A DNA stretch of 17,206 nucleotides. Source: a virus (lineage: Duplodnaviria; Heunggongvirae; Uroviricota; Caudoviricetes). Below are positions 1 to 17,206 of this stretch, in pieces (the first letter of the stretch is position 1; the number at the start of each line of letters is the position of its first letter). A model generated the notes under the pieces. The model was not told the DNA's origin. It saw nothing but the letters and a program-made list of their open reading frames with translations, and ran no database searches. Made by a program: the position numbers and the translations under genes. Location of the stretch: IMG/VR virus record IMGVR_UViG_2693429621_000004; one strand, given 5' to 3'.

Positions 1-441
1 CCAGCCACCGTTACGCTGTATCTGAACCAGCAGGCGGACTTCCGACGGATTCCGGTCACCCTTTGAGGTGGTTTCCACCAGTGCCTGCACACCGAAGGTC
101 AGGCGCAGACGGTCGATGTTTGCCGACGTGATGGTCCGGGTGATCGGCGTGTCATATTTCACTTCCGTACCCAGCACCGTCTCGGAGCCGGAGGATTCAA
201 AACCCTCCGGCGGTGTCTGCTCCTGCTCACCTGCACGGAACACCACCGTAACACCGGAAAAGTTTGTCTTCCCCTCGCTGTCCAGGACCGGCGTACCGTT
301 CAGCAGCACGCTTTTTAATCCATCCACCGGACCGTCAACCGGCCCTTCGCTGATGGCATCAATCACACTCAGCAACTGCGTGGATTTCAGGTTGTCCTTC
401 GCTTCGCGCGGGGTATGCCCCTTACTGCTGCCTTTACCCAT
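1..441 (-). CDS. J: Tail tip / host-specificity protein J, N-terminal 147 codons only (gene continues beyond the left window edge)
   Basis: Reverse complement from 441 reads ATG GGT AAA GGC AGC AGT AAG GGG CAT... = MGKGSSKGHTPREAKDNLKSTQLLSVIDAISEGP..., which matches the lambda gpJ N-terminus as recalled. It starts 60 bp downstream of the I stop, as in lambda. The track's plus-strand ORF 68..457 is its antisense shadow. Confidence 0.9.
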   Translation of the reverse strand, partial: MGKGSSKGHTPREAKDNLKSTQLLSVIDAISEGPVDGPVDGLKSVLLNGTPVLDSEGKTNFSGVTVVFRAGEQEQTPPEGFESSGSETVLGTEVKYDTPITRTITSANIDRLRLTFGVQALVETTSKGDRNPSEVRLLVQIQRNGGW

Positions 442-501
442 TCCTCACGCTCCATAAACGACAAAACCGCCCGCAGGCGGTTTCACATAAAACATTTTGC
501 A

Positions 502-1143
502 TCAGCGACCAATCACCACAACCTGACCACCATCCCCTTCGTCTGCCGTGCTGATCTCCTGAGAAACCACACGTGACCCCACGCGCATTTCACCGTACAG
601 AACGGGCAGAACATTGCCCTGGGCAACCATGTTATCCAGTGACGAGAAATACGTGTTCTGCTTACCGTTATCCGTTGTCTGTGTACGGGGAGTTCTGGCT
701 TTCGGTGCCAGCATCTGTGCAACACCGCCAAGCGTCATACTGGCACCGAGAGAAAACAGCAGATTACTCGCCATAATTCCTACCCCCGGCATCCATATAG
801 CAACCGCCATAACAGCCGCCCCCAGCACCGCCTGAAACACACCGCCACTTTTAGCTCCCACCAGACGCGGTACTATGTGGATCACTGCACCATTTGCCAG
901 CGGCTCATTAAGACGGGCAGACAATTCGGTTTCACCTGCATCACGCCCGGCAATGCGCACCTGATACCAGCCGTCACTCAGTTTCTGACGAAACGCCGGG
1001 AGCTGTGTGGCCAGTGCCCGGATGGCTTCAGCCCCCGTTTTCACACGAAGGTCGATGCGGCGACCAAATCGTTGTAAATCCCCGTAAAGGCAGATGCGCG
1101 CCATGCCCGGTGACGCCAGAGGGAGTGTGTGCGTCGCTGCCAT
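502..1143 (-). CDS. I: Tail tip assembly protein I (213 aa)
   Basis: ORF track 502..1143(-). The N-terminus MAATHTLPLASPGMARICLYGDLQRFGRRIDLRVKTGAEAIRAL and C-terminus ...VVSQEISTADEGDGGQVVVIGR are lambda gpI-like. The start overlaps the 3' end of K by about 100 bp, as in lambda. Confidence 0.85.
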   Translation of the reverse strand: MAATHTLPLASPGMARICLYGDLQRFGRRIDLRVKTGAEAIRALATQLPAFRQKLSDGWYQVRIAGRDAGETELSARLNEPLANGAVIHIVPRLVGAKSGGVFQAVLGAAVMAVAIWMPGVGIMASNLLFSLGASMTLGGVAQMLAPKARTPRTQTTDNGKQNTYFSSLDNMVAQGNVLPVLYGEMRVGSRVVSQEISTADEGDGGQVVVIGR

Positions 1144-1971
1144 TTGTCGGTATACCTCTCTCGTTTGCTCAGTTGTTCAGGAATATGGTGCAGCAGCTCG
1201 CCGTCACCACAGTAAATGGCGGCATGATTCGGCACCGATGAACCAAAACAGCACAGCAGCACATCGCCCGGCTGCGCCGCTGACAACGGCACCTGATACA
1301 GCCCTGTGGCCTCCAGATTATCCAGATAGAGATTCTGACCGTGACGCCACCAGTCATCCTCACGATGAAAATCCGGCATCTCAATCCCCGCCAGATGGTA
1401 AGCATCCCGGAACAGCGTGTAACAGTCCGTCANNNNNNCACAGCAGCACATCGCCCGGCTGTGCCTCTGTCAGTGCGACACGGTAAAAACCCGTCACCTC
1501 CATATTGTCAAGATAGAGATTCTGACCGTTACGCCACCAGTCATCCCCGCGATGAAAATCCGGCATCTCAATCCCTGCCAGATGATAAGCATCCCGGAAC
1601 AGCGTGTAACAGTCCGTCACCCCGTGCTCAAAGCGCCGCCCGGTAAGATGTGGCACACAGCGGAACTTGTGAATCGCCCCCCGGCAGACCAGCCACCACG
1701 GCAAATCACTCTGCACCTGCAGCCGCCGGTCGGCCTCACTCAGCCAGGGCAGACCACCGGGGTGGCTGTGGACCAGTGCCACAATCTCACCCTGCATCTC
1801 TGCCTGCAGCCAGTCTTCCGGCGACATACGGAAATACGCCTCCGGCTCACCGGAGATATTCACGCAGGGGAAATATCTTTCCCCCTCCGGCGTTCTTACC
1901 ACGAAGCCGCACGACTCCGCTGGAGCACATCGCCGGGCGTGCGCCAGAATCGCTGATTCTGTCTCTGTCAT
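1041..1971 (-). CDS. K: Tail tip assembly protein K (JAMM/MPN + NlpC/P60 domains); reading frame split in two by an N-gap and a flanking 181-bp duplication, most likely an assembly artefact (intact gene would be about 247 codons)
   Basis: Track ORFs 1381..1971(-) and 1041..1451(-) together read as one K protein. The first carries the exact JAMM motif HSHPGGLPWLSEAD (H-x-H-x7-S-x2-D) with upstream ESCGFV. Both carry the NlpC/P60-type segment TDCYTLFRDAYHLAGIEMPDFHR..QPGDVLL. The ATG at 1971 sits 5 nt after the L stop. Confidence 0.8.
1252..1619. repeat. Direct repeat, 2 x 181 bp (1252..1432 and 1439..1619), about 87% identical, flanking a 6-N gap
   Basis: Both copies begin cacagcagcacatcgcccggctg and end gcatcccggaacagcgtgtaacagtccgtca. 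By hand count there are about 24 mismatches, concentrated in the first 70 bp of each copy. Confidence 0.9.
1433..1438. other. Assembly gap (NNNNNN)
   Basis: Six ambiguous bases seen directly in the sequence. Confidence 0.99.
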
Positions 1972-1976
1972 GGGAT

Positions 1977-2675
1977 TTACTGCGAAAGTTTGTTAATGGA
2001 AAGGAAGCCGCCAAAGTTGCCGACGTTATTGCGAAACTTACAGCCACTCAGGCATTTGCTGCATTTATCCTTCGTGATGTCGGACGTTGGCTGGTCATAT
2101 TCATCCGCGACCGCCGGACCGTGATAACCGCACTCATCGCCGCGATAGGTCCAGGTGCAGGTGTTGGCCAGCATGATACGTCCCGGAAAAACAGCGCCAT
2201 CTGTTTCCGTCGGCGTGGACAGTACAAAAGAGGCACTCACCGCGCTCAGTTCGCTGCACTGCTCAATGCGCCAGCGGCTGATCACCTCCTGCTCCGGATC
2301 GGCGTCACTGTTTCCGTTGACGAAGTTCACCGCATCCAGAAAACGGGCGTAAACCTTACGCCGGACCACCGTTCCGCCGACCAGACTCTGTAGATCTTCC
2401 GCCATCCCGGTGACCATACCGTACAGGTTAGAAACCATCAGCGTGGGGCGCGTACTGGTGCCTTTGCCATTCAGTTCAAAACCACTCCCCTGAATGGGAT
2501 ACGGCTGATACTGTCGCCCCTGCCAGGTGACCGGCTCACCTTTTTCGTTCTGCTCATTACAGAAAAAATAACGTTCTCCACCGACCTCTGTCAGATCGAT
2601 TTCCCAGAGCACCACGCTGGCCGACTGCTCCGCACGGGTGCATTCATTCAGTGTTTCCTGCCGGATATCCTGCAT
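1977..2675 (-). CDS. L: Tail tip assembly protein L (232 aa), with C-terminal Cys cluster
   Basis: ORF track 1977..2675(-). Same length as lambda gpL. The C-terminal cysteine-rich segment CGYHGP...CSKCLSGCKF is consistent with the Fe-S-binding region reported for gpL. Confidence 0.9.
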   Translation of the reverse strand: MQDIRQETLNECTRAEQSASVVLWEIDLTEVGGERYFFCNEQNEKGEPVTWQGRQYQPYPIQGSGFELNGKGTSTRPTLMVSNLYGMVTGMAEDLQSLVGGTVVRRKVYARFLDAVNFVNGNSDADPEQEVISRWRIEQCSELSAVSASFVLSTPTETDGAVFPGRIMLANTCTWTYRGDECGYHGPAVADEYDQPTSDITKDKCSKCLSGCKFRNNVGNFGGFLSINKLSQ

Positions 2676-3004
2676 CAGTTCACCACCTGTTCAAACTCTG
2701 CGCTGAACTCAACACGCAGCATACTGACCCGCGACGACCATTTTGCGCAGGTCACCTTTATCTGCCGCCACTCATAAGGCGGCGTCCACAGAAAGGCTTT
2801 CCAGCCCCCGTGCTCTTCCAGAAACGACTCCAGTACCATGGCCTCCTCACGGGGGACAGAAAGCGTCACGCTGTACGTTTTCAGGTTGGCATTCAGCCCG
2901 GCAGGCGCTCGCTGGGAATAGCCATCACCAAAGCGCACCTTTCTTACAGAAGGGGCCGAAGCCACATCCATACCGGGTTTCACTTTCCAGCGGAAGGTTT
3001 TCAT
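2675..3004 (-). CDS. M: Tail tip assembly protein M (109 aa)
   Basis: ORF track 2675..3004(-), MKTFRWKVKPGMDVASAPSVRKVRFGDGYSQRAP.... Same length and position as lambda gpM; start overlaps the H stop by 4 bp. Confidence 0.9.
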   Translation of the reverse strand: MKTFRWKVKPGMDVASAPSVRKVRFGDGYSQRAPAGLNANLKTYSVTLSVPREEAMVLESFLEEHGGWKAFLWTPPYEWRQIKVTCAKWSSRVSMLRVEFSAEFEQVVN

Positions 3005-5562
3005 CGTCCACCTCCGGAGAACAGGCCACCATCACGCATCTGTGTCTGAATTTCATCACGGGCACCCTTGCGGGCCATGTCATACACGGCCTTCATCATC
3101 TGTGGACCTGGCAGACCATTCGTACCGTCGTTCTGAATCACCACGTGATTGTTCTGATTAAAATTAATGCCTTCAGCCCGCCGCATCTGCGCCGGACTTC
3201 CGGCACCGCCCACATAACCACCTTCCGCATAGCCGCGCATCAGCCGGTAGAGATTCCCCACGCCAATCCGGCTGGTTGCCTCCTTCGTGAAGACAAATTC
3301 ACCACGGTGAACAATCCCCGCTGGCTCATATTTGCCGCCGGTTCCCGTAAATCCCCCGGTTGCAAAATGGAATTTCACCGCAGCGGCCTGAATGGCTGTA
3401 CCACCTGACGCGGATGCGCCGCCACCAACAGCCCCGCCAATGGCGCTGCCGATACTCCCGACAATCCCCACCATTGCCTGCTTAAGCAGAATTTCTGTCA
3501 TCATGGACAGCACGGAGCGGGTGAAGCTGCGCCAGTTCTGTTCACTGCCGGTCAGCATCGCCGCCATATTCTGTGCAATACCATCAAAGGTCTGCGTGGC
3601 TGCACTTTTAACCTGTGACATACTGTCCGTGGCGCTCTCTTCCCACTCACTCCAGCCGGACTTCAGGCCTGCCATCCAGCTCCCGCGAAGCTGGTCTTCA
3701 GCCGCCCAGGTCTTTTTCTGCTCTGACATGACGTTATTCAGCGCCAGAGGATTATCGCCATACTGTTCCTTCAGGCGCTGTTCCGTGGCTTCCCGCGCTG
3801 CCTGCCGGTCAGTCAGCCCCCGGTTTTTCGCATCAATGGCTGCCCGTTTTGCCCGTTGCTGCTGTGCGAATTTATCCGCCTGCTGCGCCAGCGCATTCAG
3901 GTGCTCCTGATACGTAACCTTGTCACCAAGTGCAGCCAGCTGGCGTTTGTACTCCAGCGTCTCGTCTTTATGCGCCAGCAGGGATTTCTCCTGTGCGGAC
4001 AGCTGGCGACGTTGTGCCGCCTCCTCCAGTACCGCGAACTGACTTTCTGCCTTCCACAAATCCCGGCGCTGCTGGCTGATTTTCTCATTCGCTCCGGCAT
4101 GCTTCTCCAGCGTCCGGAGTTCTGCCTGAAGCGTCAGCAGGGCCGCATGAGCACTGTCTTCCTGACGATCGCCCGCATACACCTTCACGCCGGACTGTTT
4201 CGGCTTTTTCAGCGTCGCTTCATAATCCTTTTTCGCCGCCGCCATCAGCGTGTTGTAATCTGCCTGCAGGATTTTTCCGTCTTTCAGTGCCTTGTTCAGT
4301 TCTTCCTGACGGGCGGTATATTTCTCCAGCGGCGTCTGCAGCCGTTCGTAAGCCTTCTGCGCCTCTTCGGTATATTTCAGCCGTGACGCTTCGGTATCGC
4401 TCTGCTGCTGCGCATTTTTGTCCTGTTGACGCTGTTGATCTACCCTCTTTTGGGCTGCATCCCGCTCCAGGCGTTTTTTTTCACGATCATCCCAGTAACG
4501 CGCCCGTGCTTCATCGTTAACGAAATAATCATCCTTGCGCAGATTCCAGATGTCGTCTGCTTTCTTAAACGCAGCCTCTGCCTTAATCAGCATCTCCTGC
4601 GCGGTATCAGGACGACCAATATCCAGCACCGCATCCCACATGGATTTGAATGCACGTGCAGTCCTGTCTGCCCAGGTCTCCAGCGTGCCCATGTTCTCTT
4701 TCAGGCGGCGGGTCTGGTCATCAAACCCTTTCGTTGCGGCCTCGTTCGCCGCCTGCAATGCCCCGGCTTCATCGCCGGAACGCTGCAACTGAGCAACATA
4801 CGCAATCTGCTCCGCCGTCACGTTATGGAACTGGCGTGCCATCGCCGTCAGCCCCGACGTCGGGTCTGTGGTCAGCTTCCCGAAGGCTTCAGCGACCTTG
4901 TCCACCTCCACGCCGGATGCATAGGAGAAACGCGCCACACTCTGGCTGATGGACGCAATCTGAGCCTCACCGCTTACCCCCGCCTTAACCAGTGCGCTGA
5001 GTGACTCGCTGGTCTGGTTAAACGTCAGCCCTGCCGCCTGCCCGGCTCTGGACAGGACCAGCATACGATCTGCCGTCAGTCCCGCCTGATTACCGGAAAG
5101 GACCAGCGTTTTGTTGAAATCGGACAGGGTTGAGTTGCCCTGATACCAGGCATACGCCAGCGCACCGGTCGCCACCGCCAGCGAGGTGGCCCCCACCATC
5201 GGCAGGGTGATCGCGCCGGCAAGCCCCCTGAACATGGGGATCATCCCGCCGAAGGAGTCCTTAACCTGACCACCCTGTTGCAGCAGGATCAGCCAGGGAT
5301 TCTGCCCCCCTGCAAGCTGCGTGGCCACGTCGGTGAACTGTGCAGGCAGCATACGCATGGCGGCTTTATACTGCCCGACGGAAATCCCCGCTTTCTGTGC
5401 AGCCAGCGCCTGTCGGCTCAGCGACTGTTCAACGACTGCCGCTGTTTTTTTCGCATCACTTTCCGTACCGGAAAAATGACGCCTGACTCTGGCCATCTGC
5501 TCGTCAAATCTGGCCGCATCCAGACTCAAATCAACGACCAGATCGCCTACCGGTTCAGCCAT
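3001..5562 (-). CDS. H: Tail tape measure protein H (853 aa)
   Basis: ORF track 3001..5562(-). Length is identical to lambda gpH. It has a long Ala/Gln/Lys/Glu-rich presumably helical central region, a Gly-rich hydrophobic segment (IGGAVGGGASASGG) and the C-terminus ...RDGGLFSGGGR. Confidence 0.95.
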   Translation of the reverse strand: MAEPVGDLVVDLSLDAARFDEQMARVRRHFSGTESDAKKTAAVVEQSLSRQALAAQKAGISVGQYKAAMRMLPAQFTDVATQLAGGQNPWLILLQQGGQVKDSFGGMIPMFRGLAGAITLPMVGATSLAVATGALAYAWYQGNSTLSDFNKTLVLSGNQAGLTADRMLVLSRAGQAAGLTFNQTSESLSALVKAGVSGEAQIASISQSVARFSYASGVEVDKVAEAFGKLTTDPTSGLTAMARQFHNVTAEQIAYVAQLQRSGDEAGALQAANEAATKGFDDQTRRLKENMGTLETWADRTARAFKSMWDAVLDIGRPDTAQEMLIKAEAAFKKADDIWNLRKDDYFVNDEARARYWDDREKKRLERDAAQKRVDQQRQQDKNAQQQSDTEASRLKYTEEAQKAYERLQTPLEKYTARQEELNKALKDGKILQADYNTLMAAAKKDYEATLKKPKQSGVKVYAGDRQEDSAHAALLTLQAELRTLEKHAGANEKISQQRRDLWKAESQFAVLEEAAQRRQLSAQEKSLLAHKDETLEYKRQLAALGDKVTYQEHLNALAQQADKFAQQQRAKRAAIDAKNRGLTDRQAAREATEQRLKEQYGDNPLALNNVMSEQKKTWAAEDQLRGSWMAGLKSGWSEWEESATDSMSQVKSAATQTFDGIAQNMAAMLTGSEQNWRSFTRSVLSMMTEILLKQAMVGIVGSIGSAIGGAVGGGASASGGTAIQAAAVKFHFATGGFTGTGGKYEPAGIVHRGEFVFTKEATSRIGVGNLYRLMRGYAEGGYVGGAGSPAQMRRAEGINFNQNNHVVIQNDGTNGLPGPQMMKAVYDMARKGARDEIQTQMRDGGLFSGGGR

Positions 5563-6393
5563 ACCGGACTCCTCCTGCGATCCCTTCTGATACTGTCATC
5601 AGCATTACGTCATCCTCCGTCATGTCCGCCACATCCGGGGAAGCGGGGATAACTTCATTCCCGTCCGGGCCAAAGCGGACACCTCCGGCAAGCCCTGCCG
5701 CTTTCTGCATCAGCACATCATCTTCAGGCTCTTCGTCAGCCTCGCGCCGGTTCAGCAGACTGAAATCCAGCGGATGCATCTCCGGATCGCTGAAAAACAG
5801 GCTGAGCACGGTGTACGTCAGCCCGGAAAAGTGCATATCCAGCAGAACATCATGAAAATAATGGGTACTGTAAAAGCGGTGCCAGTCGGCATACTCCGTG
5901 GATGACATCCCGGCAAGCATGGCGCGCCAGTCGGGTCGCCCCATCTCACGCGCCAGTTTCAGGGCAAAACTCAGCTCACCGTCGAACACTTTCCCGCAGA
6001 AACAGGCTCTGCAGGCCCGGCGTCCTCTGCCTGTTCAGGAGCATCATTCACCACAAACTCATACATACCGGACAGCCGGTACACCACGTTTTCAGCATGA
6101 GAAATTGCCTCTGTGGGCCAGGTGGTAAGCACTTCCTGCTCAATCTGTTTAACGGCTTCATTCATGGACGGCATCTGCGTCTTCTTCGGATGGTTATGCC
6201 ACAGGGACATCGCAACCACAAAAGCGCCGGTTCTGATGGCGTCTTCCACAGTAAACTTCCGGTTGCTGTCTGACTCCGCCTGTTCTGCCTGCCGTTTCAT
6301 CAGGTCGAGATGCTCAATACGCTGCAGGGCTGACAGTTCAGAAAGCGTGACGGTCACACCGTTATGTTCAAATGATTCGGTTTTCAGGAACAT
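5555..6393 (-). CDS. GT: Tail assembly chaperone G-T fusion made by programmed -1 ribosomal frameshift (T frame 5555..5989)
   Basis: Slippery heptamer G GGA AAG on the minus strand (plus coords 5989..5995) lies 8 codons before the G stop. The -1 frame from it reads GKVFDGELSFALKLAREMG... with no stop until 5555, overlapping the H start. Confidence 0.85.
5971..6393 (-). CDS. G: Tail assembly chaperone G (140 aa)
   Basis: ORF track 5971..6393(-), MFLKTESFEHNGVTVTLSELSALQRIEHL...SAGKCSTVS. A GGAGAG Shine-Dalgarno lies upstream of the ATG at 6393. Confidence 0.9.
   Translation of the reverse strand: MFLKTESFEHNGVTVTLSELSALQRIEHLDLMKRQAEQAESDSNRKFTVEDAIRTGAFVVAMSLWHNHPKKTQMPSMNEAVKQIEQEVLTTWPTEAISHAENVVYRLSGMYEFVVNDAPEQAEDAGPAEPVSAGKCSTVS
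5989..5995 (-). promoter_or_regulatory. Programmed -1 frameshift slippery site GGGAAAG (G/T)
   Basis: Plus-strand ctttccc at 5989..5995 is the reverse complement of GGGAAAG. G frame reads GCG GGA AAG TGT; the -1 frame reads GGG AAA GTG TTC. Confidence 0.85.
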
Positions 6394-6408
6394 CGCTGAC
6401 TCTCCGGA

Positions 6409-7149
6409 TTAACTGGCGGTGACGTTGATTTCTGCAACCGCAGCAAACTCACCATTACCAGATACGACCGGAATGTTGACCTTGCCTGCAGCAACACCTT
6501 TCACGGTGATGGTCATACCACTGACCGACACGGTGGCTTTTGTTTTATCCGCAGACACCGCACGGAAGCTCTTGTCGGTTGCGCCATCCGGCTGGAATGC
6601 CACGGTCAGCGTGGTGCTCTGCCCTTTCACTACGGAAGCACTGGCGGGTGTCACCGTCATGCCGGTCGTCGCCGTCACCGTGCTGCGATCTTCTGCCATC
6701 GACGGACGTCCCACATTGGTGACCTTCACCGTGCGGGTAATCACCTCCTTCGCCGTCACCGCCTTACCGATACTGCTGACCCAGCCACGGAACACATCGA
6801 CCGTGCCGTTCGGGAAGCGGATTTTATAGGCACGGGTATCACCTTCATTAAACCACGCCAGCAGCGCCTGCTGCCCCTGCTCTCCGGGCATCCACGCCAG
6901 CGTGAAGCTGGTATCTCCGGCAGATTTCTGCCCCTGCCCGGTCGCAGTCCAGTCTGCATCTTCATCATCGAGATAGCTGTCGTCATAGGACTCAGCGGTC
7001 AGTTCGCCGGGCGTCAGGTCTTTAACTTTTGCCAGACGCGACCAGTCAACGTCTGAAAGCGGGTTCGCATAAGGGTCACCGCTCCCCTTATAAACCCACA
7101 GGGTGGTCCCGGCACCTTTCACCGGCATTGTAGGATTTGGTACAGGCAT
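6409..7149 (-). CDS. V: Major tail tube protein V (246 aa), with C-terminal Ig-like region
   Basis: ORF track 6409..7179(-). The probable start is the internal ATG at 7149 ([22 protein letters not shown]...), preceded by GAGGA and lying 8 nt after the U stop. Confidence 0.9.
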
Positions 7150-7156
7150 AGCGTCC

Positions 7157-7552
7157 TCACATTTCATAGATAATGACATAAGTCAGATCGGCTGAACTCC
7201 ACAGGCCCGCATCATCGTCGCGCCGGTAGTCATAGCCGCTGGCCACCATACTGGTGATCAAATCTGACAGTGCCGGGATATCGCTCATCACCGGATAAAT
7301 CCGGGACTCCATCCACGAATCCAGCTCTGAATCCGGCACCTGAGCAGGCAGGAAAACTTCAATATGCAGCTCCGCCTGCCAGGTATCGCTGTCCAGCTCT
7401 TCGCCCGTGTATTCAGCGCCGGTGAGATAAACGGCAATTGCCGGAAAATCTTCCTCATCAAAAACAGCGGGGCGACCATCAAAAAGCGTCGCCCCGGTGT
7501 CATGCTTCTCCAGTGCATCCAGTACGGCTGCACGGAGTTCAGTATGTTTCAT
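7157..7552 (-). CDS. U: Tail terminator protein U (131 aa)
   Basis: ORF track 7157..7552(-), [45 protein letters not shown].... Length equals lambda gpU; 4-bp overlap with the Z stop. Confidence 0.9.
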
Positions 7553-8127
7553 CGCTTTATTACCATTCTCAGTTGATGCTGCAGCGCATAGCCCAGCTCT
7601 TTCGGAAGACGTTCACGCCGTATCCGTTCAATATTCTGTTTAAACGCCGTGGTCAGCGGCACCGCCATCGGGATTTTCACCACATCAATGGGGTAACGGT
7701 TTTTCCCGGCCACACGCTGCATAACATGCCACCGGCCGTTTTTCAGTTGCTGAATAAACGCGCCGGGAATACGACGGTTACCCACCACAAGCACGCTGCC
7801 GCCACCTTTCAGGGATGAACGCTGCCCCTTTTTATGACGCCTGCGGCGGGACAGGACAACCCGCGCATTACCCAGCTTGATTACGGGCAAATCCCCCCGG
7901 TTAACTTTGATTCTGGCCTGCGGATTTTTGACCGTGGCCCTTTTCAGCCTGGCCCTTTCCTTTACCAGTTTCCGGCGTACCTTTGTCTCACGGGCAACCT
8001 GTGACGCAGACTGCGATATCGCGGATGAAGCAACGCGGTTAATGGCCATTGCGGCGGCACCGGGCACCGCCGTTTTGCTGATACGGCTGAGGTTTTCAAC
8101 GGCCTGCTCAAGACCTTTTATGGCCAT
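7549..8127 (-). CDS. Z: Tail completion protein Z (192 aa)
   Basis: ORF track 7549..8127(-). Length and position equal lambda gpZ. Confidence 0.9.
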   Translation of the reverse strand: MAIKGLEQAVENLSRISKTAVPGAAAMAINRVASSAISQSASQVARETKVRRKLVKERARLKRATVKNPQARIKVNRGDLPVIKLGNARVVLSRRRRHKKGQRSSLKGGGSVLVVGNRRIPGAFIQQLKNGRWHVMQRVAGKNRYPIDVVKIPMAVPLTTAFKQNIERIRRERLPKELGYALQHQLRMVIKR

Positions 8128-8138
8128 ACATCCCCCTT

Positions 8139-8492
8139 TCAGCGGCGACGGTTAACGGCAGGCGGTACGCCCCGTCCAAGCCAGAGATGACAACTTCCGC
8201 CATCATCCGGCGAAACCCGATCTACCCAGAAATTTTCCTCACCGATGGTCAGCGTGTCTCCACGCCGCAGCTGCCGCACCTCATCAGTCCGGACAAACAG
8301 GGACGGGCTGGAGCCTTCAACGCGCACGCCCTGTCCGGCATAGCTGATATTTTCAGGGTCATCAAAAACACCACGTATCACCGCACCTGACTGCTCACCG
8401 GATGTCATGGTGGCTGACGTTCCCATGTACCCGCGTATCGTTTCATCGGCGCGGGCAATGGCAGCATCGAACAGGTTATCGAAATCAGCCAC
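8139..8492 (-). CDS. FII: Head-tail connector / head completion protein FII (117 aa)
   Basis: ORF track 8139..8492(-), MADFDNLFDAAIARADETIRGYMGTSATMTSGEQSGAV.... Length equals lambda gpFII. Confidence 0.9.
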   Translation of the reverse strand: MADFDNLFDAAIARADETIRGYMGTSATMTSGEQSGAVIRGVFDDPENISYAGQGVRVEGSSPSLFVRTDEVRQLRRGDTLTIGEENFWVDRVSPDDGGSCHLWLGRGVPPAVNRRR

Positions 8493-8503
8493 AGCGCCTC
8501 CCG

Positions 8504-8902
8504 TTATTGCATTCTGGCCAGGCCGCGCTCTGTCATTTCGGCTGCCACACCGGCAGAGACACGAAACGCCGTTCCCGGCAGCACAAATGCCACAGGTTTA
8601 TCCCGCGTGGCGTGAAGTGCATCAGTATGCAGCGTCACCAGTGCCACGACCGTGACCAGTTCAGCCGTATCCTGAATCACGGTATCCGGCTGCGCTGATA
8701 CCACCTCATTTTCATGCCCGGTCAGCACATTTTCCCGGCTGAGAGGGGTGTCCTGACCGGCAGTTTCATCCGTGTCATCAAGCTCTTCTTCCAGCTCTGC
8801 CACACGAAGCGCCAGTTCTTCTTTCGTTCCCGTCAAACTGACATCGCGGTTCAATTGCTCACCCAGCTCCTGAAGACGGGCAATCAGTTCATCTTTCGTC
8901 AT
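8504..8902 (-). CDS. FI: DNA-packaging accessory protein FI (132 aa)
   Basis: ORF track 8504..8941(-) is 145 aa. The internal ATG at 8902 (MTKDELIARLQ...) has a strong GGAGGA Shine-Dalgarno 5 nt upstream and gives the lambda gpFI length of 132 aa. Confidence 0.85.
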   Translation of the reverse strand: MTKDELIARLQELGEQLNRDVSLTGTKEELALRVAELEEELDDTDETAGQDTPLSRENVLTGHENEVVSAQPDTVIQDTAELVTVVALVTLHTDALHATRDKPVAFVLPGTAFRVSAGVAAEMTERGLARMQ

Positions 8903-8943
8903 GAACTCCTCCACAGAGAGAAAATGGCCCCGAAGGGCCATGA

Positions 8944-9969
8944 TTACGCCAGTTGAACGGACACGAACTCATCAGGATCAGCCAGCAGCATCAGCGGTGC
9001 TGACTGAATCATGGTGAACTCACGCGCCGGATCGCCGGTGGTCACCCAGTTTTTCGGGTAACGGGCAGAAGCGTTAATGCCTTCGCGCTGTGCGTCCGCA
9101 TCCTGAATGCAGCCATAGGTGCGCAGACCGCGAGCCTGAGTGTTCCCCAGCACCATCGTGTTGTCCGGCAGGAAGTTCTTTTTGACGCCGTTTTCCACGT
9201 ACTGTCCGGAATACACGACGATGGCCACATCGCCATACATTCCCTTATAGGACACCGCTTTGCCCAGGTCTTTTACCGCTGTCTCCAGCTCGGAATGAGA
9301 GCCGCGACGGGTATCCAGCTTCTCCTTGACGGCTTTGAAGGAACGGAACAGCGCCCAGCCTTTCGGGTCAAACACGATGATATTCACCACACCGCTGGCG
9401 TTCAGCGCGTAGGCTTCGATATCGTCGGTCGGGTCATACGTGGACTTGTCACGCTTGCTCCACTCCGTGACGCCGGACTGTGTGATGTTGTTCGCCGCAC
9501 TGCGGCCCATATCCACCTCAACCGGATCGAAGGCTTCACCGGTCATGGTGTATTTGCCCTTGAGCACGGCAGAAACTGCCTGCATCTCTTCGACCTGAGC
9601 AATGGCCAGCTCTTCGTCACGCATGTTCTGCATGATGATGCGACGGCGGCGGTAAGCCGGGTCCGCCAGATTCTGCGGATCTTCATCCGGCAGGCGACGC
9701 AGGGTCATCTGCGGATTCACCTCATGCTTGGGTTTGACATATCCCGGCGTAAATTCAGAGGTGGAGCCGCCACGGGAACGGATAACCTCACCGGAAACAA
9801 TCGGCGAAACGTACAGCGCCATGTTTACCAGTCCCGGAATTTGTGAGAGATAGACTTTCTCCGTAGTGAAGGGATAGCTCTCACGGAAAAAGAGACGCAG
9901 AAACAGCGGATCAAACTTAAATTTCTGCTCATTTGCCGCCAGCAGCTGGGCGGTTGTGTACATCGACAT
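8944..9969 (-). CDS. E: Major capsid protein E (341 aa)
   Basis: ORF track 8944..9996(-). The start at 9969 gives MSMYTTAQLLAANEQKFKFDPLFLRLFFRESYPFTTEKVYLSQIPG... (341 aa), matching the lambda gpE N-terminus and length. Confidence 0.95.
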   Translation of the reverse strand: MSMYTTAQLLAANEQKFKFDPLFLRLFFRESYPFTTEKVYLSQIPGLVNMALYVSPIVSGEVIRSRGGSTSEFTPGYVKPKHEVNPQMTLRRLPDEDPQNLADPAYRRRRIIMQNMRDEELAIAQVEEMQAVSAVLKGKYTMTGEAFDPVEVDMGRSAANNITQSGVTEWSKRDKSTYDPTDDIEAYALNASGVVNIIVFDPKGWALFRSFKAVKEKLDTRRGSHSELETAVKDLGKAVSYKGMYGDVAIVVYSGQYVENGVKKNFLPDNTMVLGNTQARGLRTYGCIQDADAQREGINASARYPKNWVTTGDPAREFTMIQSAPLMLLADPDEFVSVQLA

Positions 9970-10024
9970 AAAAAAATCCCGTAAAAAAAGCCACACAGGC
10001 GGCCTTTAGTGATGAAGGGTAAAG

Positions 10025-10357
10025 TTAAACGATGCTGATTGCCGTTCCGGCAAACACGGTCCGTTTTTTCGTCTCGTCGCTGGCAGCCTCCGGCCAGAGC
10101 ACATCCTCATAACGGAACGTGCCGGACTTGTAGAACGTCAGTGTGGTGCTGGTCTGGTCAGCAGCAACCGCAAGAATGCCAACGGCAGCACCGTCGGTGG
10201 TGCCATCCCACGCAACCAGCTTACGGGTGGAGGTGTCCAGCATCAGCGGGGTCATTGCAGGCGCTTTCGCACTCAATCCGCCGGGCGCGGTTGCGGTATG
10301 AGCCGGGTCACTATTGCCCAGCGGCTGGTAATGGGTAAAGGTTTCTTTGCTCGTCAT
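10025..10357 (-). CDS. D: Head decoration protein D (110 aa)
   Basis: ORF track 10025..10363(-). The start at 10357 gives [43 protein letters not shown]..., lambda gpD-like, 110 aa. Confidence 0.9.
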
Positions 10358-10366
10358 AAACATCCC

Positions 10367-10972
10367 TTACACTGGTGTGTTCAGCAAATCGTTAACGGCA
10401 TCAGATGCCGGGTTACCTGCAGCCAGCGGTGCCGGTGCCCCCTGCATCAGACGATCCAGCGCAGTGTCACTGCGCGTCTGTGCACTCTGTGGTGCTGCGG
10501 CCAGAATACGGCGGGCCGTTTCCACGGTCATACCGGGGGTTTCGGCCAGCACGCGTGCCTGTTCTTCGCGTCCGTGAGCCTCCTCACAGTTGAGGATCCC
10601 CATAATGCGACTGTTTTCTGCCGCAACCGCTGCGGTGATCTGCGCGTTCACGTCCGGCTGCGCCGCGCTGGCGTTCTCGCCCTCCGTCGCTTGCACCACG
10701 CCAGTAACGTCAGCCTGCGAAGCAGTGGCTGAAACAGTTGTTGATTGAGTCTCTTTGGTCATTCGCCCTCCTGAGAGACGGGATTTACGTGCATCCAGTG
10801 CATCACGCATGACGGTGATCGCATCGGTACTGTTAACAAGTTCATCAGCCAGTCCGGCATCAATGGCCTCCTGACCGCTGTACACTGCAGCCTCGGTATC
10901 CAGCACAGCCTGCACGGACAGGCCGGTATATGCCGACACCTTCTGTGCAAACATCCGGCGGGTTGCATCCAT
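10367..10972 (-). CDS. Nu3: Scaffolding protein Nu3 (201 aa), nested in-frame in the 3' part of C
   Basis: The in-frame ATG at 10972 reads M D A T R and shares the C stop at 10367. This position corresponds to the lambda Nu3 start by coordinate mapping. Confidence 0.7.
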   Translation of the reverse strand: MDATRRMFAQKVSAYTGLSVQAVLDTEAAVYSGQEAIDAGLADELVNSTDAITVMRDALDARKSRLSGGRMTKETQSTTVSATASQADVTGVVQATEGENASAAQPDVNAQITAAVAAENSRIMGILNCEEAHGREEQARVLAETPGMTVETARRILAAAPQSAQTRSDTALDRLMQGAPAPLAAGNPASDAVNDLLNTPV

Positions 10973-11666
10973 CCGGGACTGCAATGTTTCCCGGACATCA
11001 TCCGGTAGATGGCTGTAGGGGTTGCCATCCACCTTATGGCTGCCGCTGTAAATCAGCGTGATTTCCACGCCCTGTTTCTCCAGTGCAGCGCCGTAATTAC
11101 TGTGAGCCATCATGACGCCGATGGAGCCTGTCCGGGCGGTCTGCGTGACCAGACGCCGGGAGGCGGCACTGGCAAGCAGCTGACCTGCGCTGCAGTTCAT
11201 GTCATTGGCCAGCGCCCATACCGGCTTTATGTCACGCACACGGGCGATGATGTCAGCGCAGTCAAATGCTCCCGCCACCATTCCGCCCGGTGTGTCCATA
11301 TCGAGCAGAATGCCGTCCACCATCGGGTCGCTGGCAGCCTGTTGCAGACGGGCGATAATGCCGTTGTAACCGGTCATCCCCGAGTACGGCTGCAGCGCCC
11401 GCGTCCGGCTGACCAGCGTGCCGGACACCGGCAGCACGGCGATGCCGTTCATTACCTGATAACTGCGGGCCTGTCGTGGTCCGTCATCATCACCGGATAA
11501 CGCCAGCGCCGCGGGTGCCTCTCCGGCAGTCAGGCTGTCGCCGGATACTGCATCCGTCAGGCAGCTGATCCCAAGCTGGCCTGCAAGCGCACAAAAGAAA
11601 ACCCGCGCATAGGCGGGTTCAAGCATCAGCGGCTCATTAAAAGCCATGCTGGCAATATGCGGGAGA

Positions 11667-11686
<20 letters not shown>
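10367..11686 (-). CDS. C: Capsid maturation protease / scaffold C (439 aa, GTG start)
   Basis: ORF track 10367..11821(-). The GTG at 11686 is preceded by AGAGGAGGAGAAGA and gives (M)TAELRNLPHIASMAFNEPLMLEPAYARVFF..., 439 aa as in lambda gpC. The start overlaps the B stop by about 20 bp. Confidence 0.9.
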
Positions 11687-15367
<3,681 letters not shown>

Positions 15368-15393
<26 letters not shown>

Positions 15394-15913
15394 TCAGCAA
15401 CCCCGGTATCAGTTCATCCAGCGCGGCTGCTTTGTTCATGGCTTTGATGATATCCCGTTTCAGGAAATCAACATGTCGGTTTTCCAGTTCCGGAAAACGC
15501 CGCTGCACCGACAGGGGGATCCCGTCGAGAATACTGGCAATTTCACCTGCGATCCGCGACAGCACGAAAGTACAGAATGCGGTTTCCACCACTTCAGCGG
15601 AGTCTCTGGCATTTTTCAGCTCCTGTGCGTCGGCCTGCGCACGCGTAAGTCGATGGCGTTCGTACTCAATAGTCCCTGGCTGGAGATCTGTCTCGCTGGC
15701 CTGCCGCAGTTCTTCAACTTCCCGGCGCAGCTTTTCGTTCTCAATTTCAGCATCCCTTTCGGCATACCATCTTATAACGGCGGCAGAGTCATAAAGCACC
15801 TCATTACCCTTGCCACCGCCTCGCAGAACGGGCATTCCCTGTTCCTGCCAGTTCTGAATGGTACGGATACTCGCACCGAAAATGTCAGCCAGCTGCTTTT
15901 TGTTGACTTCCAT
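15368..15913 (-). CDS. Nu1: Terminase small subunit Nu1 (181 aa), with N-terminal winged-helix DNA-binding domain
   Basis: ORF track 15368..15913(-), MEVNKKQLADIFGASIRTIQNWQEQGMPVLRGGGKGNEVLYDSAAVIRWYAERDAEIENEKLRREVEELRQ.... Length equals lambda gpNu1; cosB lies immediately upstream. Confidence 0.95.
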
Positions 15914-15929
15914 TGTTCATTCCACGGAC

Positions 15930-16135
15930 AAAAACAGAGAAAGGAAACGACAGAGGCCAAAAAGCCCGTTTTCAGCACCTGTCGTTTCCTTTCTTTTCAG
16001 GGGGTGTTTTAAATAAAAACATTAGGTTACGGCGAAGAAGAACGGAAACGCCTTAAACCGGAAAATTGTCATAAATAGCGAAAACCCGCGCGCCTTCCGC
16101 CCCGTAACCTGTCGGATCGCCGGAAAGGACCCGCA
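15930..16135 (-). other. cos: cos region: cosB (Nu1-binding R1, R2, R3 repeats), cosN and cosQ-like right-end sequence
   Basis: GAAACG-core repeats match the lambda R-site pattern: agagaaaggaaacgacag at 15936..15953 (R1), gtcgtttcctttc at 15981..15993 (R2, inverted) and aacggaaacgcctt at 16041..16054 (R3). gcgaaaacccgcg at 16078..16090 is the reverse complement of lambda left-end bases 13..25. gtaacctgtcggatcgccggaaaggacccgc at 16104..16134 is the reverse complement of the lambda right end. Confidence 0.85.
16091..16102 (-). other. cosN: Predicted 12-nt cohesive-end core of cosN (phage sense GGGCGGAAGGCG)
   Basis: Positioned by ungapped alignment of conserved flanks to lambda. Lambda has GGGCGGCGACCT here; this window differs at 5 of 12 positions. 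Confidence 0.6.
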
Positions 16136-16301
16136 AAATGATAATAATTATCATCTACATGTCACAACGTGCATCTACGCCATCAAACCACGTCAAATAA
16201 TCAATTATGACGCAGGTATCGTATTAATTGATCTGCATCAACTTAACGTAAAAACAACTTCAGACAATACAAATCAGCGACACTGAATACAGGGCAACCT
16301 C

Positions 16302-16535
16302 ATGTCAACGAAGAACAGAACCCGCAGAACAACAACCCGCAACATCCGCTTTCCTAACCAAATGATTGAACAAATTAACATCGCTCTTGTTCAAAAAGGG
16401 TCCGGGAATTTCTCAGCCTGGGTCATTGAAGCCTGCCGCCGGAGACTGTGCTCAGAAAAAAGAGTTTCGCCTGAAGCAAACAAAGAAAAGAGTGACATTA
16501 CTGAATTGCTCAGAAAACAGGTTAGACCAGATTGA
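16302..16535 (+). CDS. Small hypothetical protein (77 aa) with ribbon-helix-helix-like N-terminal pattern; possibly the lambdoid right-end small ORF family (lambda orf next to cos / E. coli YlcI-like, DUF3950)
   Basis: ORF track 16302..16535(+), MSTKNRTRRTTTRNIRFPNQMIEQINIALVQKGSGNFSAWVIEACRRRL.... It has a basic N-terminal tail, a short beta-strand-like RNIRFP, helix-like NQMIEQINIALVQKG, a G-x-N loop and helix-like AWVIEACRRRL. No strong Shine-Dalgarno; family assignment is from memory only. Confidence 0.55.
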   Translation: MSTKNRTRRTTTRNIRFPNQMIEQINIALVQKGSGNFSAWVIEACRRRLCSEKRVSPEANKEKSDITELLRKQVRPD

Positions 16536-16592
16536 AGCAATTTAGATAATCGTGCAGACTACGCCCCCTCATATCACATGGAAGGTACTACA

Positions 16593-17003
16593 ATGGCTCA
16601 GGTTGCCATTTTTAAACAAATATTCGATAAAGTGCGAAATAATTTAAACTATCACTGGTTTTATTCTGAACTAAAACGTCACAATGTCTCACATTACATT
16701 TACTATTTAGCCACAGAGAATATTCATCTTGTTCTTGAAAACGATAATACGGTTTTAATAAAAGGACAGGGTAAGGTTGTAAATGTAAGATTTTCAAAAA
16801 ATAAATGCCTTATAGAAGCCACCTTAAAAGGATTCAAATCAGGAGAGTTATCATTTTACGAATACAGGAAAAATCTTGCTACAGCAGGGGTTTTCAGATG
16901 GATTACAAATATCCACGAAAACAAAAGGTATTACTATACCTTTGATAATTCATTACTCTTTACTGAGAACATACAGAACACTACACAAATATTTCCGCAC
17001 TAA
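16593..17003 (+). CDS. AT-rich hypothetical protein (136 aa from ATG 16593; 141 aa if ATG 16578 is used); possibly the lambdoid right-end orf family (YbcV/DUF1398-like)
   Basis: ORF track 16578..17003(+). The ATG at 16593 has GGAAGG 7 nt upstream. About 32% GC against about 55-58% in the structural genes. It has two similar half-motifs (..[10 protein letters not shown].. and ..[23 protein letters not shown]..). Family assignment is tentative. Confidence 0.55.
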
Positions 17004-17206
17004 ATCATAACGTCCGGTTTCTTCCGTGCCAGAACCGGACTCGCTGGCATGATGAAATATGTGTACCCGGTAACCCCGGTGTGCATCGTTTTTGATTATT
17101 CCCGCACACTCGCGCAGAAGGAGTTCCCCGTCGGGCTACGGTCTCTGTTAATACGGGAATACGGCGACGATTGGATTTGCCCCTATATTTCCAGACATCT
17201 GTTATC

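Follow-up and report, generated by a model that had tools for sequence, protein, structure and literature searches.

The scaffold and its interrupted gene K

The window analysed here, meaning the whole stretch of 17,206 nt, is the entire scaffold CXDP01000082.1 of the draft assembly GCA_001247735.1, a single record recognized by an exact match of the window's 196-aa K fragment with its XXX residues included. The strain table of PMC5447701 gives CXDP00000000 as Shigella sonnei Sh988743, a lineage IIIb member of the Holt et al. 2012 collection. The structural genes of the scaffold all lie on the minus strand and run from the start of J through I, K, L, M and H onward to terminase and Nu1. The left end of the window (1..1099) holds the first 441 nt of J, the whole of I (longest ORF at 502..1143) and the 3' end of K, and a lambdoid structural module occupies 1645..17206, with the minus-strand order Nu1, terminase, W, portal, protease, D, E, FI, FII, Z, U, V, G, T, H, M, L and the 5' part of K. 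Between these two regions the scaffold contains its sole run of undetermined bases, a gap of 6 N at 1433..1438, so that the piece to the left of the gap is only 1,432 bp in length.

Two further features of the module may be described here. The tail chaperone ORFs G (PF06894, 5971-6393) and T (PF06223, 5555-5989) overlap on the minus strand in the canonical layout of the lambda G/GT genes, an arrangement which in lambda uses a programmed -1 frameshift. Past Nu1, at 16302-17003, ORFs for DUF3950 (77 aa) and DUF1398 (141 aa) lie on the plus strand, opposite to the structural genes, and the DUF1398-Nu1 neighbourhood is also present in two other public contigs (L025 and L026).

A sequence-only reading of the window had drawn attention to the gap and to a divergent 181-bp direct repeat that flanks it within K, had placed most of the mismatches in the first 70 bp of the repeat, and had pointed out that the insert is not a multiple of 3 in length and splits K into two ORFs. 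All of these observations hold in detail. The two copies, designated A (1252..1432, minus strand) and B (1439..1619, minus strand), form a gap-free, in-register alignment of 181 nt at 87% identity, and of the 24 mismatches 19 fall within the first 72 nt. A match of this length and identity is far beyond chance, and the pair is the sole direct repeat of at least 40 nt in the window; its start-to-start spacing is 187, which is not divisible by 3. Read on the minus strand, both copies code for the same segment of K, TDCYTLFRDAYHLAGIEMPDFHR...QPGDVLL (TDCYTLF...QPGDVLL), at the start of the NlpC/P60 domain, with 9 residues that differ between them.

The consequence for the reading frame is an artefactual N-terminal ORF of 196 aa (1381..1971, minus strand), which passes from copy B through the Ns into an out-of-frame copy A and which carries the Prok-JAB domain (PF14464, E = 3.3e-14), and an artefactual C-terminal ORF of 112 aa (1041..1379, minus strand), which carries the NlpC/P60 domain (PF00877, E = 4.5e-08) and which is the form called in the deposited record. 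When the Ns and either one of the copies are removed, an intact K of 247 codons is restored, which is the approximate length that the sequence-only reading had given for a single intact K. The merged gene, of 744 bp, is that of an ordinary lambda gpK-type protein of 247 aa, in which a Prok-JAB (MPN) domain is followed by NlpC/P60, and its place in the tail tip cluster H-M-L-K-I-J is between L and I. The protein family of lambda gpK, annotated as “C40 family peptidase”, has this same domain composition, gene order and length, and no biological difference from it is left once the artefact is removed; what sets the deposited record apart is the division of the gene into two ORFs.

The longest ORF across the gap (136 aa) has no database record. 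The 112-aa K fragment, its source record aside, matches only unrelated defective prophages, so that a search with this fragment is uninformative on whether the split gene recurs. The contigs concerned (L025-L032, from Logan/ENA) are of E. coli and metagenome origin and are unrelated to the scaffold; in them the 112-aa fragment occurs exactly (for example at 7282-8712 in L025), and a 180-aa portal fragment abuts the partial K followed by I and J, an organization which resembles that of a defective prophage that has lost a large internal segment from portal to K.

Two source prophages and a crossed haplotype map

The sequences on the two sides of the gap can each be traced to a lambdoid element in public assemblies. 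The first element, P1, was found through the window's L protein; this prophage has a complete complement of head and tail genes and was examined at seven loci (L003-L006, L009, L011 and L012) on 4.8-Mb chromosomes and long contigs, among them that of S. sonnei 3226-85 (L006); CP104423.1:1298373-1311071 is an example of native P1. The second, P2, was found through the window's I protein at four loci (L014-L017) on chromosomes of 4.8-4.9 Mb; it is an IS-truncated lambdoid remnant with the order Q antiterminator, IS elements, 127-aa H remnant, M-L-K-I-J-lom, IS, and a native example is CP023645.1:1949253-1961894. In three of these loci (L014-L016, 1689-4318) H is cut to its 127-aa 3' remnant beside rve/HTH_Tnp_1 transposases, and another IS follows lom. 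Since H survives only as this remnant beside an IS, with a further IS after lom, P2 is a non-functional remnant, one which keeps an intact M-L-K-I-J-lom block.

The right flank of the repeat is 100% identical to P1 (L003) over 1620..8000, the extent of the window covered by comparison with the finished genome, and on this basis the module at 1645..17206 is assigned to P1. The left flank (1..1251) is 99.76% identical to P2 and 87% identical to P1, with 100% identity to L014 over 1..800; each flank, compared with the other element, reaches only 80-92% identity. Between the two elements L is about 80% and I about 87% identical. The K genes of the two elements are near-identical outside a core of 124 bp that contains the 24 differences between alleles A and B, and this core is flanked by blocks of exact identity of 45-80 bp. 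Copy A matches all seven P1 loci with 0 mismatches and differs from P2 at 24 positions, and copy B matches the finished P2 loci L014-L016 equally perfectly and differs from P1 at 24. In the finished elements, therefore, the K allele that adjoins the window's right flank is copy A, and the allele that adjoins its left flank is copy B.

All 11 finished loci (7 P1 and 4 P2) are native in organization, with no hybrid K, and each has the K segment in single copy. An intact 247-aa K was called at 9 of the 11; the exceptions, L006 and L017, lack the call for other reasons. In L017 (CP022455.1, 5356-6001) the P2 K is uncalled and copy B aligns with a gap of 1 nt, which could be either a frameshift or homopolymer error of the assembly or a sign that K is truly a pseudogene in this P2 remnant.

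The record can also be read literally, K being inactivated by a genuine tandem duplication of 181 bp with a sequencing gap in it, in which case ...GTCCGTCA would be expected to be directly joined to CACAGCAGCAC.... The layout of the record is the one observation in favour of this reading, and almost no credence can be given to it. The copies are not derived from each other, since each is base for base the sequence of a different finished chromosomal locus; the N gap falls exactly between them; and contiguous copies related by descent were not found at the locus. The duplication is absent from all of the finished and long contigs examined, K is intact at 9 of the 11 finished loci, and each of the two native K proteins is found on roughly 1000 contigs or more. 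The sequence-only reading had already considered a duplication the less likely explanation and had proposed instead an unmerged, chimeric join of two lambdoid K alleles; the exact identity of copy A to P1 and of copy B to P2 agrees with it on both points.

The pairing of alleles with flanks is nevertheless not the one that the earlier reading implied. It had attached the left copy to the K 3' end, I and J, and the right copy to the K 5' part, L, M and H. As a description of physical adjacency this is correct, but the implicit native membership of each copy in the flank that it touches is contradicted by a map of the 58 sites that separate the P1 and P2 K genes, together with flanking sites. 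In the left piece all sites from 742 to 1099 (including the P2-specific sites 1063, 1075 and 1099 in the K 3' part) have the P2 state, and sites 1152, 1198 and 1209 and 24 of 24 sites within copy A have the P1 state. In the right piece the P2 state is found at 24 of 24 sites within copy B (1462..1585) and the P1 state at all sites from 1645, with P1-specific sites at 1645, 1651 and 1732 in the K 5' part. There are no private bases in the K region: in the site-by-site map every base is that of P1 or of P2. Painting with k-mers agrees, and assigns 17-1119 to P2, 1132-1418 to P1, 1442-1605 to P2 and 1625 onward to P1, with the Ns between the second and third of these segments.

The pairing is thus crossed. 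Copy A, which natively belongs with L-M-H, adjoins the I and J of P2, and copy B, which natively belongs with I and J, adjoins the L-M-H of P1. Because copy A sits by a P2 flank and copy B by a P1 flank, each contig end is itself chimeric, and merging the two ends yields neither native gene. Both changes of haplotype lie within exact P1/P2 identity. The left piece switches from P2 to P1 in a 52-bp block (1100..1151), beyond which its P1-state tail, copy A included, extends over 1152..1432 on the minus strand; the right piece, which ends with copy B, switches from P2 to P1 in a 59-bp block (1586..1644). Further identity blocks of 45, 65 and 80 bp lie around the divergent core. The outer left end of the scaffold (window position 1, corresponding to 7143 in L014 and 8518 in L003) falls midway along 74 bp of J over which P1 and P2 do not differ, with the nearest mismatches at -37 and +38 from the scaffold end, and the 1,432-bp left piece is therefore bounded at both ends by blocks of identity between the prophages.

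The linkage of J and I to the rest of the module had been called unproven, and this caution is justified: I and J belong natively to a separate IS-truncated remnant. The further suggestion that the host carries more than one lambdoid prophage is sound for the host lineage, which carries more than one lambdoid element. The finished P1 and P2 loci came from different finished assemblies, and the presence of both elements in one chromosome is suggested by the drafts that hold both P1 and P2 sequence (the window, L021, L034 and L082) and by the near-ubiquity of both native K proteins. Two alleles within one assembly might also come from a mixed or contaminated sample, with the K alleles contributed by different strains or phages. 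This is very improbable, since both alleles are those of resident S. sonnei-type P1 and P2 at 100% identity, which makes a second organism unnecessary, and since other drafts of single isolates carry both alleles.

Comparisons outside the two elements gave nothing closer. A third prophage was considered as the source of the left piece, the candidate being that of E. coli FDAARGOS_943, which has a similar arrangement at 98.4% identity, and it was discarded, since an exact mosaic of P2 and P1, without a private base, accounts for the left piece. Among complete E. coli genomes no locus is identical to either flank, the best matches being 98.4% and 98.2% in different genomes; K-bearing prophages are multi-copy in these genomes, with a median of 2 and up to 13-14 per genome. 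Junction probes (84-mers and 131-mers) were also compared with IMG/VR and were rejected as a test of recombination after returning from 3 to 78 matches. Such probes cannot discriminate between models, because these local combinations of haplotypes commonly occur as natural mosaics among the lambdoid phages of E. coli; they are useful only for finding sibling scaffolds.

Hybrid K genes in sibling drafts and the question of recombination

Sibling drafts show comparable scrambling of this region, but the block at which the haplotype changes varies among them (52, 59 and 80 bp). The Sanger draft scaffold CWTP01000056.1 (L021) has, over 1-11334, the order P1 H-M-L-K', P2 H'-M-L-K, a second K 3' fragment and P2 I-J, with four N gaps and with homologous overlaps across gaps of 250-274 N. 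Its K switches exactly from P2 to P1 at the 59-bp block (a form that may be written P2/59/P1) and remains in the P1 state for approximately 160 nt past the end of the gene. It represents, at greater extent, the kind of false duplication described for the window. In the contig L082, whose 7,700 bp equal the length of the only contig with the mergeB protein described below, a short N gap separates a native piece of the P1 K from P2 sequence with allele B, which switches to P1 in the 80-bp block, so that the P1 5' part of K is present twice, and in L034 a P2 K is joined to P1 across a short N gap.

A census of exact K proteins places these hybrids in proportion. The native P1 protein occurs on at least 1000 contigs, the longest of 5.03 Mb, and the native P2 protein on 999 contigs, the longest of 4.94 Mb. 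The hybrid proteins occur on 1-61 contigs each, all of 37 kb or less: P1/59/P2 on 32 contigs (longest 37 kb), P2/59/P1 on 61 (36 kb), P2/65/P1 on 2 (7.4 kb), the product of merging that is designated mergeA (P1/52/P2) on 3 (17.9 kb), and the multi-switch mosaic mergeB on a single contig of 7.7 kb. P1/65/P2 and P2/52/P1 are absent from this exact-protein census. Several hybrid S. sonnei entries annotated as “C40 family peptidase” in public databases probably arose in the same way. Three of them (WP_052993646.1, WP_052995237.1 and WP_072120437.1) are exact P1/P2 mosaics of K found on 1-3 short contigs each; their changes of haplotype fall in the 52-bp block, in multiple blocks and in the 65-bp block, and they are probably assembly chimeras now present in reference protein databases.

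Smaller patches of the other haplotype are also seen. In short-read drafts, pairs of sites in the P1 state occur within an otherwise pure P2 K at merged sites 1458/1464 in L036 (5539 region) and L034 (5313 region), and at 1198/1209 in L100 (3050 region) and L082 (2239 region). The patches are flanked by long identity blocks, and the finished P2 loci L014-L016 are pure P2 without them. Bubble-popping by a de Bruijn assembler would yield precisely such a pattern, and the patches may be interpreted in this way or, alternatively, as real micro gene conversion between the prophages.

The principal alternative to an assembly origin of the whole arrangement is that its backbone is real, having been produced in the strain's lineage by homologous recombination between P1 and P2 within K at the 59-bp block, through inversion or gene conversion. 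One locus would then truly run from the P1 head and tail genes and the K 5' part through copy B to the P2 K 3' part, I and J, and the right piece and its linkage to I and J would be genuine; the end of the left piece that carries copy A (1152-1432) and the gap would alone be artefactual, and the duplication and the split of K would remain artefacts in this case as well. Several observations are of the kind that such an exchange would produce. The P1/59/P2 form of K and its reciprocal are found verbatim in the tens of contigs counted above, from Sanger and from other submitters, and the K of L021 is exactly the reciprocal product, with a P1 state that continues beyond the gene, which exchange would explain more simply. 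The window itself would require one wrong turn of the assembler, compared with two for a non-recombinant genome with the crossed order. Recombination between prophages that causes large rearrangements is reported in E. coli O157:H7 (PMC8743559).

The resemblance to the O157:H7 hybrid prophages and inversions (PMC8743559) is that there are likewise two resident lambdoid elements whose near-identical tail genes are plausible substrates, and that hybrid K alleles appear in some drafts. The difference is that none of the long-read or finished S. sonnei loci examined is hybrid, and that the two junctions seen here do not come from one crossover: a crossover in the 59-bp block gives the P1 K 5' part joined to B and not A joined to the P2 K 3' part, and one in the 52-bp block gives the reverse. 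Because no single crossover gives both junctions, the junction in the left piece (whichever of the 52-bp and 65-bp blocks it lies in) is artefactual under any model with just the P1 and P2 loci, and the left piece is chimeric regardless of how the right piece arose.

Recombination as the origin of the backbone is unlikely for further reasons. The seven P1 and four P2 finished loci are all native, and no hybrid junction was found on a long-read or chromosome-scale contig, the hybrid K never occurring on contigs longer than 37 kb. The switch blocks differ among the sibling drafts, and L082 combines native and hybrid junctions with a duplicated P1 K 5' part, which is impossible from a simple recombinant genome. 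If the P1-state patches represent the true P2 of some strains, they lengthen the exact repeat to approximately 120-146 bp, which makes chimeras likely even with longer reads. A similarly low probability is attached to the proposal in its most specific form, in which the exchange within K is genuine and took place in S. sonnei lineage IIIb, or in a sublineage to which Sh988743 belongs, possibly with a chromosomal inversion, to give a hybrid with the head and tail shaft of P1 and the I-J tip of P2. Were this true, the patches would be real micro gene-conversion tracts instead of the result of bubble-popping.

A probable false duplication of paralogous alleles

Taken together, the comparisons favour, with a probability of roughly 85%, the reading that the repeat is a false duplication generated in the assembly and scaffolding of a short-read draft, in which the two alleles of a bubble would have been placed in series and joined to chimeric P1/P2 flanks. 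The N gap lies between the copies in a scaffolded draft record, and each copy is identical to a distinct genuine locus without private mutations. K is most likely intact at both loci.

The steps by which such a structure could arise may be outlined as follows. Represented as a de Bruijn graph, the K genes of the strain's P1 and P2 would form a two-allele bubble between collapsed repeats: the near-identical stretches at 1100-1274 and at 1399-1544 (merged coordinates) would collapse with short reads, and the 124-bp core would stay a bubble. Read pairs over the collapsed flanks would link whichever unique contigs had absorbed those flanks, so that both arms of the bubble could be placed in series, with P2 (J, I and the K 3' part) leading into A, then NNNNNN, then B and P1 (the K 5' part, L, M, H and onward). 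The edges of the gap may then have been extended into different alleles, with 6 N left over; their 24 differences over 181 positions kept the two ends from being merged.

A plausible sequence of software steps would comprise graph simplification by Velvet, a greedy join by SSPACE and extension from both edges by GapFiller, and we infer that the record originated in a pipeline of this type. Bacterial drafts of the Sanger Institute from that period were produced with Velvet (k of 66-90% of read length), SSPACE and 120 iterations of GapFiller (PMC5320598), and the authors of that pipeline state that its steps are greedy and that false joins are possible (PMC5320598). S. sonnei was the most fragmented of its species, with a mean of 405 contigs over 299 genomes (PMC5320598), and the supplement contains S. 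sonnei records with neighbouring accession prefixes (PMC5320598). GapFiller extends both edges base by base and closes a gap only where the extensions overlap by 10 nt or more and the insert departs from the estimated length by no more than 50 nt; the gaps which it leaves open are mainly in repeats (PMC3446322).

The biological weight of the duplication is very small, since K is almost certainly intact and the duplication is nonexistent in the cell. Its importance lies in the use of the record. On the assembly reading the two K ORFs of the deposited annotation are spurious, and the scaffold ties the structural module of P1 to the tail tip (I and J) of P2, so that inferences about host range or prophage type drawn from it would mislead. 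Contig ends beside gaps may hold the allele of the other paralogue, and merging of the overlap then recovers no true sequence.

False duplications at gap edges, in which unmerged haplotigs or bubbles are placed in series, are well known from the assembly of diploid genomes, and the present case may be regarded as their bacterial, paralogue-driven equivalent. As in diploid assemblies, two divergent versions of a sequence flank an N gap, the gene appears duplicated or frameshifted, and dropping one copy restores the ORF. Unlike the diploid case, the “haplotypes” are paralogues in two prophages of a haploid bacterium, and each contig end switches paralogue within a short identity block, so that the flanks are chimeric too.

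The outer end of the scaffold lies 36 nt beyond the last P2-specific base, and an overhang of this length would fit a Velvet k of 37, which hints at reads of approximately 41-56 nt.
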